Assembly (NCBI RefSeq): GCF_003334315.1
Contig: NZ_QOWR01000104.1
Strand: one strand, 5' to 3'
Source: Escherichia coli
GTDB lineage: Bacteria; Pseudomonadota; Gammaproteobacteria; Enterobacterales; Enterobacteriaceae
DNA length: 3,487 bases
The stretch's first letter is position 1. Each line of letters opens with the position of its first letter. The notes beneath the pieces are model-generated. The model worked only from the letters and a program-made list of their open reading frames with translations. It had not been told where the DNA came from and did not search any database. The position numbers and the translations under genes were made by a program. Positions 78 through 3,487 of this stretch are shown piece by piece.

Positions 78-490
78 GCTTCATTGATTAACGTCAACCA
101 CTCACCGCTGGCGTAGTTTCGTACGTGAGAGGTATCGCGTAATGCTTCTACCGTCTGTAACCAGATGTCGCGCACTGGGTGACCCGGAGACATTACGTCC
201 ATCACAATCAGCCTACCGCCAGGTTTCAATATCCTATTCACTTCTCGCAGTGCTGCACCAACATCATGCCAGTGATGGGCAGAATAACGGCTGATAACAA
301 TATCAAATGCGTTATCGGCAAATGGCAGACTTTCGGCATATCCCTGGCGGGTGGTGATATTTTTCAGTTGCCGGGCTTCGGCAGCTTGTGCCACGACATC
401 CAGCATGTGGGCAGATAAGTCATACGCCACCACCGCGCTCACGTTTTGCGCAGCGCCAAACGTTGGTCTGCCCTGTGGCAGACCTGACAT
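62..490 (-). CDS. yafE: Class I SAM-dependent methyltransferase (YafE-like), 3'-truncated by the IS2 insertion; likely a pseudogene
   Basis: The 142-aa ORF carries methyltransferase motifs: VVAYDLS (post-I acidic residue), FDIVIS (motif II) and LKPGGRLIV (motif III). The last ~4 codons (RLAP-stop) and the TGA stop at 62..64 are encoded inside the IS2 terminal repeat, so the native C-terminus is missing. My recollection is that intact YafE is about 207 aa. ATG at 488..490. Confidence 0.65.
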   Translation of the reverse strand: MSGLPQGRPTFGAAQNVSAVVAYDLSAHMLDVVAQAAEARQLKNITTRQGYAESLPFADNAFDIVISRYSAHHWHDVGAALREVNRILKPGGRLIVMDVMSPGHPVRDIWLQTVEALRDTSHVRNYASGEWLTLINEARLAP

Positions 491-493
491 ACC

Positions 494-1345
<852 letters not shown>

Positions 1346-1350
1346 CTACT

Positions 1351-1379
1351 GTTATAGGGATTTTAGCTCACTCTTTCAA
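1351..1379 (-). promoter_or_regulatory. Candidate sigma70 promoter for yafD(-yafE): -35 TTGAAA, 17-bp spacer, -10 TATAAC
   Basis: On the minus strand, TTGAAA is the complement of 1374..1379 and TATAAC the complement of 1351..1356, with a 17-nt spacer; each hexamer is a 5/6 match to consensus. The predicted transcription start is near 1343, giving a leader of about 50–70 nt to the yafD start. Confidence 0.35.
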
Positions 1380-1400
1380 CGAGCAATTGTATATTGTTAT

Positions 1401-1416
1401 GTAAGCAAGTGCTTAC
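1401..1416. promoter_or_regulatory. Perfect 16-bp palindrome GTAAGCA-AG-TGCTTAC; candidate transcription-factor operator
   Basis: Seven-bp arms that are exact reverse complements, with a 2-bp spacer. It is centred about 65 bp upstream of the predicted yafD transcription start, a typical position for an activator or LysR-type recognition site. Confidence 0.3.
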
Positions 1417-1464
1417 ACCGGTCAGAATTTTGCTCATTATGGAGAACATTAAATCGCATGACAT

Positions 1465-1479
1465 ATCACGCATCCTGAT
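1465..1479. promoter_or_regulatory. LysR-type box candidate ATC-N9-GAT (T-N11-A motif)
   Basis: ATCACGCATCCTGAT is an interrupted dyad that fits the generic LysR-family T-N11-A / ATC-N9-GAT pattern. It sits about 55 bp upstream of the yafC ATG in the divergent yafC–yafD intergenic region. Confidence 0.3.
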
Positions 1480-1534
1480 GGTTTAATGACAAATAAATTC
1501 AAAATATCTCTTCTATTTTGCAACAGGAGCAAAA

Positions 1535-2449
1535 ATGAAAGCCACGTCGGAAGAACTCGCCATTTTTGTTTCGGTCGTCGAAAGCGGCAGCTTTAGCCGG
1601 GCAGCGGAACAATTAGGGCAAGCAAACTCAGCGGTAAGCCGGGCGGTGAAAAAGCTGGAGATGAAACTTGGCGTTAGCCTGCTTAATCGGACCACGCGAC
1701 AACTTAGCCTGACGGAAGAAGGCGAGCGTTATTTTCGTCGCGTACAGTCAATTTTGCAGGAGATGGCAGCGGCAGAATCAGAAATTATGGAGACGCGTAA
1801 TACACCGCGTGGACTGTTACGGATCGATGCCGCAACTCCAGTGGTGCTGCACTTTCTGATGCCGTTAATTAAGCCTTTCCGTGAACGCTATCCGGAAGTC
1901 ACTTTGTCGCTAGTCTCCTCCGAAACGATTATTAATTTGATCGAAAGAAAAGTGGATGTCGCGATACGCGCTGGTACGTTAACGGATTCCAGCTTACGTG
2001 CCAGGCCGTTATTTAACAGTTATCGAAAAATTATCGCCTCCCCCGATTATATTTCCCGCTACGGGAAGCCAGAAACGATCGACGATTTAAAGCAACATAT
2101 TTGCCTGGGATTCACTGAACCCGCTTCCCTCAATACCTGGCCGATAGCCCGTAGCGATGGACAATTACATGAGGTGAAGTACGGTTTGTCATCCAATAGT
2201 GGGGAAACACTGAAACAGCTTTGCCTGAGTGGCAACGGGATTGCGTGTTTGTCCGACTACATGATCGACAAAGAAATCGCTCGCGGAGAATTGGTGGAGT
2301 TAATGGCAGATAAAGTGTTGCCAGTGGAAATGCCATTCAGTGCCGTCTATTACAGCGACCGTGCGGTAAGTACGCGCATCCGGGCTTTTATCGATTTCCT
2401 TAGCGAGCATGTAAAAACAGCTCCCGGAGGAGCTGTCAGAGAGGCTTAA
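1535..2449 (+). CDS. yafC: LysR-family transcriptional regulator (YafC-like)
   Basis: 304-aa ORF with an N-terminal helix-turn-helix typical of LysR regulators ([23 protein letters not shown]) and a C-terminal co-inducer domain. AGGAG Shine-Dalgarno at 1525..1529, 5 nt before the ATG at 1535. Divergent from yafD. Confidence 0.9.
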
Positions 2450-3249
2450 TCCCATTCAGGAGCCAGACCTTCCGGGCTAACCAGGCGGTCGTTGCAATCC
2501 AGTGCGACGATCGCTTTTTTATCTTCGGCATCAAGCTGTAAATTTTGTGCCTTAAGATTACTTTCCAGGTTTTTACGTTTAGTAGAAGAAGGAATTACTG
2601 AGTAACCTTCCCCCATAGCCCACGCCAGAATCACTTGTGCCGGAGTCGCATTGTGTTTAGCTGCGATACGAGCAATAACCTCATCTTTCAGGGCCTTACC
2701 ATACGCCAGCGTCATATAGGAAGTAATATGGATGCCGTGCTGTTTAGCCCAGGCAACCACTTTACGGTTTTGCAGATAAGGAGAGAGTTCAATCTGGTTA
2801 GTAGCGATGTTTTCAGCACCAACAGCAGCAATCGCTTTTTCCATCAACGGGATCGTGAAGTTGGAAATACCGATCTCACGCGTCAGCCCTTGTTTTTTGG
2901 CTTCCAGCAGCGCCTGCATAAACTCTTCAACAGAGACTTCATCGTTTGGTGACGGCCAGTGGATTAGCGTCAGATCAACATAATCGGTACGCAATTTTTG
3001 CAGGCTCTCTTTCAGACTTGGGATCAATTTGTCTTTGCTGAGATTTTCAATCCAGATTTTAGTGGTGATGTAGAGTTCATGACGTGGCACGCCACTTTCT
3101 GCAATCGCCTGACCTACTGCGGCTTCGTTATCATAGATTTGTGCGGTATCAATTGCGCGATAACCAAGTTCAAGCGCCGTTATCACAGATGAAATAACAA
3201 CGTCGTCTTTCAGACGGAAAGTACCTAAACCAAATGCAGGGATAGCCAT
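2446..3249 (-). CDS. dkgB: Aldo-keto reductase, 2,5-diketo-D-gluconate reductase B-like
   Basis: 267-aa ORF with aldo-keto reductase catalytic residues in the expected context: Asp/Tyr in [10 protein letters not shown], Lys in ITTKIW, His in LIHWP. Shine-Dalgarno AAGAGG about 8 nt upstream of the ATG (complement of 3247..3249). Matches my recollection of E. coli DkgB (YafB). Confidence 0.9.
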
Positions 3250-3288
3250 AATATGCCTCTTTTAATGCTATTTTCGTTAACTGAGGTG

Positions 3289-3317
3289 ATTATGGGCTTC
3301 AGACTGTTGAGGAAAAA
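3289..3317 (-). promoter_or_regulatory. Possible dkgB promoter (-10 CATAAT; weak -35)
   Basis: On the minus strand, CATAAT (complement of 3289..3294) lies about 40 nt upstream of the dkgB ATG. The -35 at a 17-bp spacing (TTTTTC) is poor, so this is tentative. Confidence 0.2.
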
Positions 3318-3371
3318 GAGCGTAAAATGCAGAGGATTTTTGCGATTCTGGCAATAATAGATATACAGACG

Positions 3372-3399
3372 AAAAAAAACCTCGAGCGTTAACTCGAGG
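3372..3399 (-). terminator. Rho-independent terminator downstream of tRNA-Asp (end of the rRNA/tRNA transcription unit)
   Basis: On the minus strand: 7-bp GC-rich stem CCTCGAG / CTCGAGG with a 6-nt loop, followed directly by eight T residues (complement of the A-run at 3372..3379). Confidence 0.75.
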
Positions 3400-3411
3400 C
3401 TTCTTAATAAG

Positions 3412-3487
3412 TGGCGGAACGGACGGGACTCGAACCCGCGACCCCCTGCGTGACAGGCAGGTATTCTAACCGACTGAACTACCGCTC
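3412..3487 (-). tRNA. aspU: tRNA-Asp (anticodon GTC), encoded CCA end; 5'-terminal nucleotide lies just outside the window
   Basis: The reverse complement of 3412..3487 matches the E. coli tRNA-Asp sequence as I recall it, lacking only the first G: GAGCGGTAGTTCAGTCGGTTAGAATACCTGCCTGTCACGCAGGGGGTCGCGGGTTCGAGTCCCGTCCGTTCCGCCA. The anticodon loop CTGTCAC contains GTC. The gene symbol assumes the copy that trails an rRNA operon, as in K-12. Confidence 0.9.

Follow-up and report, generated by a model that had tools for sequence, protein, structure and literature searches.

The rRNA operon rrnH of Escherichia coli is arranged in the order 16S, tRNA-Ile, tRNA-Ala, 23S, 5S and tRNA-Asp, with the tRNA-Asp gene aspU as its final gene. 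Read along one strand, the K-12 genome has 16S, tRNA-Ile, tRNA-Ala, 23S, 5S and tRNA-Asp and then dkgB, yafC, yafD and yafE, with 54 nt between the end of the 5S gene (rrfH) and tRNA-Asp. aspU has been described as the distal tRNA of rrnH, and distal tRNAs may also possess promoters of their own (PMC5179076). Two further Asp genes, aspV and aspT, are identical to aspU over 77 nt, and the first base past the CCA is also common to all three. aspV has the same orientation as aspU and lies 8 kb away, and it is aspV, not aspU, that is among the tDNAs most often targeted by islands (PMC7545054). Here we consider a stretch of 3,487 nt (the window, i.e. the whole stretch of DNA that was analysed), which ends within a tRNA-Asp gene, and compare it with these described systems.

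The tRNA-Asp gene occupies positions 3412-3487 on the minus strand, with its first base beyond the window edge. ARAGORN calls a tRNA-Asp with anticodon GTC at 3412-3488 on that strand, the window stopping one base short of its 5' end, and Rfam family RF00005 matches it with 59.6 bits (E=1.3e-11, gathering score 29), the match being truncated at the 5' end. With both tools, the segment has the cloverleaf and GUC anticodon that define tRNA-Asp(GUC). The 3' CCA is encoded in the gene (3412-3414), and the 76 of 77 nt in view are all identical to K-12. The aspU copy of O157:H7 NE1127 (563-639 of locus L005) carries a T to G change at tRNA position 47, in the variable loop, relative to K-12 and the window. 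No other credible RNA family was found in the window by Rfam at E values up to 1, where the only match besides the tRNA was a spurious one to Xist.

Because the three Asp genes are identical, the tRNA sequence alone is not diagnostic, and the gene is instead assigned from its flank; the rRNA genes themselves would lie past 3487, outside the window. Positions 78-3487 show 100% nucleotide identity to E. coli K-12 MG1655, and likewise to many other strains. The 162-nt flank at 3250-3411 occurs once per genome, in 5335 of the 5426 complete E. coli genomes, and in every genome inspected it sits between a 5S-linked tRNA-Asp and dkgB; the order 5S-tRNA-dkgB is found not only in K-12 but also in O157:H7, GPEC403-625, BH100, Ec-FL1-1X, AST85 and K_EC180. 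This unique downstream flank, a terminator followed by dkgB-yafC-yafD-yafE, is the one by which rrnH and aspU are recognized. Were the gene instead aspV, which is free-standing and an island hotspot, or aspT of rrnC, then one of two readings, that of an rRNA operon or that of “no island”, would fail, and the tRNA, identical over 77 nt and one further base, cannot discriminate among them. However, the single-copy flank and its position between a 5S-linked tRNA-Asp and dkgB in the inspected genomes argue against both; moreover, aspV has its own trailer and terminator, which differ from those of the window, and aspT is followed 8 nt downstream by tRNA-Trp. Either identity is thus vanishingly improbable, and the gene is assigned to aspU, the distal tRNA of rrnH, on the identity of its unique flank with the reference genomes.

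Downstream of aspU on the minus strand, a 12-nt trailer (3400-3411) leads from the tRNA 3' end to the stem of an intrinsic terminator of rrnH/aspU (3372-3399), which was delineated by hairpin scan, fold and conservation. The stem arms CCTCGAG and CTCGAGG, at 3393-3399 and 3380-3386, form 7 bp, 5 of them G-C, around a loop of 6 nt, or of 4 nt closed by a U-G pair. They are followed by T8 at 3372-3379 (an A-run on the plus strand), and pairing of the U-run with AAGAAG upstream of the stem can extend the helix to 14 bp. When a 44-nt segment was folded, the minus strand gave -18.5 kcal/mol (z = -4.7, with 0 of 200 shuffles as good) and the plus strand -11.5 kcal/mol. The consensus scan picked up the hairpin only as a plus-strand site, where the tail is only CTTCTTAATA; since it is the tRNA strand that carries the 8-T tail, the hairpin is read as the terminator of the tRNA's transcript. 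Intrinsic terminators are characterized by a G+C-rich stem-loop that runs directly into a stretch of U in the transcript, by conservation and by a place at the 3' end of a transcription unit. The hairpin with T8, conserved and 12 nt past the CCA, has these features and is predicted from its sequence to be a canonical one. The hairpin at 3380-3399 contains two XhoI sites (CTCGAG) on either side of an HpaI site (GTTAAC) and in this respect resembles a synthetic linker, yet it is native and conserved across E. coli.

Conservation was assessed in an alignment of five diverse E. coli sequences (the window, O157:H7, an avian strain, BH100 and Ec-FL1-1X). All five share an identical trailer, identical stem arms and T8, whereas substitutions are frequent straight after the T-run and the next 20 nt are variable. 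Within the tRNA and terminator, O157:H7 departs at tRNA position 47 and at one base of the terminator loop (A to T), with the stem and T8 unaltered. An invariant stem and T8 with variable sequence downstream fits the pattern expected of a functional terminator, while covariation contributes no evidence in this case because the stem never varies. The preliminary description had placed the window end at the tRNA-Asp and terminator of an rRNA operon, which is borne out by the 100% identity and the single-copy flank shared with K-12 rrnH; position 3372, at which it began, is the exact end of the T-tract. It had further stated that the terminator follows the tRNA directly and is itself followed by dkgB. 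This holds as to order, but “directly” is too strong, as a 12-nt spacer separates tRNA and terminator, and a further 122 nt separate the T-tract from the dkgB ATG at 3249.

From established knowledge of rrn operons, we infer that co-transcription, processing and termination take place at aspU in the usual way. Transcription from the rrnH promoters would give a long rrn precursor with aspU at its end, from which the usual tRNA-processing nucleases would cut the tRNA, with the CCA already encoded. The hairpin and U8, twelve bases past the CCA, would then make RNA polymerase release the transcript, and termination at this point would insulate dkgB from very strong rRNA transcription.

The gene beyond the terminator, dkgB (2446-3249, minus strand), encodes 2,5-didehydrogluconate reductase B and is a core gene, identified by its RefSeq annotation and by the NCBIfam equivalog NF008377 (529 bits, cut-off 327). 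Its upstream intergenic region (3250-3371, minus strand) contains a ribosome-binding site AAGAGG and a possible, conserved -10 element CATAAT at 3294-3289, read by eye, and no ORF of more than 34 aa. The scan of this region yielded no sigma-70 consensus promoter for dkgB, and for this reason part of dkgB expression may come from read-through out of rrnH. Two further core genes follow: yafC (1535-2449, plus strand), encoding a LysR-type regulator (NCBIfam NF040888, 520.8 bits, cut-off 470), and yafD (494-1294, minus strand), encoding a member of the endonuclease/exonuclease/phosphatase family (NCBIfam NF003839, 624.6 bits, above the curated equivalog cut-off). yafC and dkgB are convergent, and their stop-codon ends share 4 nt (2446-2449), which leaves no room for a terminator between them. 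The last gene, yafE, likewise of the core set, is a remnant at 78-490 on the minus strand, recognized as a class I SAM methyltransferase from the pseudogene annotated by PGAP in K-12, an alignment with AST85 and methyltransferase family matches. Compared with the intact 771-nt yafE of AST85, its 5' end (~440-460) shows the K-12-type 221-bp deletion, which takes the start of the gene and is bordered by a GCAGCG direct repeat, and an insertion element, ISEc27, cuts the gene at 77/78. yafE is therefore inactivated twice, by the 221-bp deletion and by ISEc27.

tRNA genes can serve as integration sites, and the preliminary description had held that this one carries no integrase, no direct repeat of its 3' end and no foreign DNA or insertion. 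All three statements stand. The ORFs of at least 140 aa, which the integrase search covered, are DkgB, YafC, YafD and YafE' only, and no tyrosine or serine integrase is found among them next to the tRNA. The search for a second copy of the tRNA 3' end, with 26-nt and 16-nt queries and up to 3 mismatches, covered the 3.4 kb downstream of the tRNA and returned self-matches only within the window; the closest non-self match to the last 15 nt differs at 5 positions, and no 9-mer of the tRNA recurs elsewhere in the window on either strand. A repeat finder reported only short two-copy families in the window, as expected by chance. One of these, the 13-nt direct repeat D12 (2117-2129 and 3432-3444; 85%), was considered as an att repeat and rejected as a chance match, as its tRNA copy falls in the T-arm instead of at the 3' end and the other copy is inside yafC. 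Neither strain-variable nor compositionally foreign DNA was found between the tRNA and the core flank, which is collinear with and 100% identical to K-12; GC across the window ranges from 0.42 to 0.55 without a step, and 5326 of the 5426 complete E. coli genomes have at least 80% of the window. Every feature of an island or prophage that was tested is absent at aspU.

A less direct possibility is that the 162-nt spacer, or the block from dkgB to yafE, is a degraded element, formerly integrated at the tRNA and by now without its integrase and att repeat. In K-12, aspU and aspV are identical, full and directly repeated and bracket an 8-kb block from dkgB to dnaQ, which superficially resembles an att-flanked segment, and yafE is decaying by deletion and IS insertion. 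Nevertheless, the block carries the core housekeeping genes dnaQ, rnhA, gloB and mltD, and the share of it that lies in the window occurs in at least 98% of genomes, from all phylogroups, with typical GC, no integrase and no partial tRNA repeat. Both tRNAs are, in addition, complete genes rather than att half-sites. We thus consider a degraded element to be extremely improbable, and read the DNA downstream of aspU as core sequence.

To what extent the junction is kept across the species was assessed with a query comprising the dkgB start, the spacer, the terminator and the tRNA. Of 5426 complete E. coli genomes, 5313 (~98%) have this tRNA-terminator-dkgB junction unbroken, which leaves about 113 genomes (~2%) without it, of which a few, including AST85 and CUVET25-1155, were sampled. 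No integrase-type island at aspU was seen among these few, and the only mobile DNA seen at aspU in the genomes sampled is IS200: in AST85 and ten or more further genomes (at least 11 in all), an IS200 or IS200C copy directly follows the aspU T-run, and insertions of the AST85 type keep the terminator stem and seven T. CUVET25-1155 (NZ_CM172034.1) has yafL joined to speE and only one tRNA-Asp match, and its “complete” record is without ~110 kb that include rrnH, dnaQ and many essential genes. A natural deletion was considered for this strain and rejected; with essential genes absent, the record almost certainly contains an assembly gap.

The IS200 and IS200C copies merit a separate remark. They are found immediately past the T-run of three tRNA-linked terminators, those of rrnH-aspU, aspV and rrnC aspT-trpT, and share one orientation, with the left end GTGCACAGAAAACCCCC abutting the T-run. 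The copies lie at 8295-9001 of locus L002, ~393-1092 of L012, ~9005-9706 of L009 and ~1503-2213 of L013, and the insertion site corresponds to 3372/3373 of the window. Occurrences of IS200C beside a tRNA-Asp without dkgB had been candidates for further aspU cases; they are actually at aspV and rrnC. Terminators have been found to be enriched just upstream of IS200/IS605 elements (2025 preprint, 10.1101/2025.07.22.666184).

The window itself carries mobile DNA only at its far end. Positions 1-77 on the minus strand are the left end of ISEc27, an element of the IS3 family, IS2 group, whose transposase would lie past the window start. These 77 nt are IS2-like, but they match the widespread IS2 copies at 90-95%, and are 100% identical only to a minority of records; the 100% match that was opened, in strain 5270, adjoins an annotated “IS3-like element ISEc27 family transposase”. 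Hence, the earlier view that the sole mobile DNA is an IS2 at the far end is right about the presence and place of a mobile end, but not about IS2 in the strict sense, as the 100% match is to ISEc27. The junction of ISEc27 with yafE (77/78) occurs in 0 of 5426 complete E. coli genomes, and the insertion may be confined to this strain or its lineage.

The two ends of the window also account for its abrupt stop inside aspU. Each end consists of exactly 77 nt of multi-copy sequence, namely the ISEc27 terminus at 1-77 and, at 3411-3487, one shared trailer base together with 76 tRNA bases. Because both ends hold a 77-nt repeat, the end within the tRNA is read as an assembly break, and the window is probably a whole contig from a short-read de Bruijn assembly at k=77, broken at repeats. 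This idea requires a single trailer base common to aspV and aspU in the source strain, whereas two are common in K-12. One may argue that the stop at 3487 marks a genuine breakpoint in the source strain, by rearrangement or by insertion within the tRNA, given that recombination can act on rrn operons and tRNA copies. However, exactly 77 nt of multi-copy sequence at both ends is what marks a de Bruijn contig at k=77, and the 76 tRNA bases in view are undamaged and match K-12 throughout, which makes a real breakpoint highly improbable and leaves an assembly break as the reading we adopt.

Taken together, we are highly confident that the locus represents the 3' end of E. coli rrnH in its normal, unoccupied state. 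As such it is already known, with aspU, the end of rrnH and the intrinsic terminator all belonging to fully described classes. Its significance is small, being that of a textbook rrnH 3' end and a correct negative. In practical terms, the contig can be annotated as having no island at its tRNA and ends that are most probably repeat-induced breaks, and the element at the far end is to be named ISEc27.

Compared with the distal region of rrnH in K-12, i.e. rrfH-aspU-terminator-dkgB (yafB), the window has the same order and the same spacing over its entire collinear part, and the source strain differs in this region by an extra ISEc27 in yafE. Other rrn terminators are of similar build: that of rrnC, after aspT-trpT, is like that of rrnH a G+C-rich hairpin followed by 7-8 T near the last tRNA, although the stem sequences differ. 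The more instructive comparison is with aspV, a known integration hotspot outside the window (PAI-CFT073-aspV; a T6SS island). aspV has the identical 77-nt tRNA and is likewise followed by an intrinsic terminator, but it is outside any rRNA operon and has variable island DNA downstream, in contrast to aspU, which is followed by core DNA in at least 98% of genomes. K_EC180 shows both states in one genome, with IS200C and type VI secretion genes downstream of aspV and an intact aspU-dkgB junction. It is conceivable, and we suggest it only tentatively, as an idea somewhat more apt to fail than to hold, that integrase-borne islands use only aspV, and that the rrn-operon copy aspU is effectively refractory despite its identical attachment core. 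One reason might be that attB recognition takes in part of the trailer; another, that rRNA read-through would overwhelm any island lying between the tRNA and its rrnH terminator. With this idea the genome counts are only consistent. Still, the comparison of aspU with aspV illustrates, in a small way, that an identical tRNA is not enough to make an integration site.
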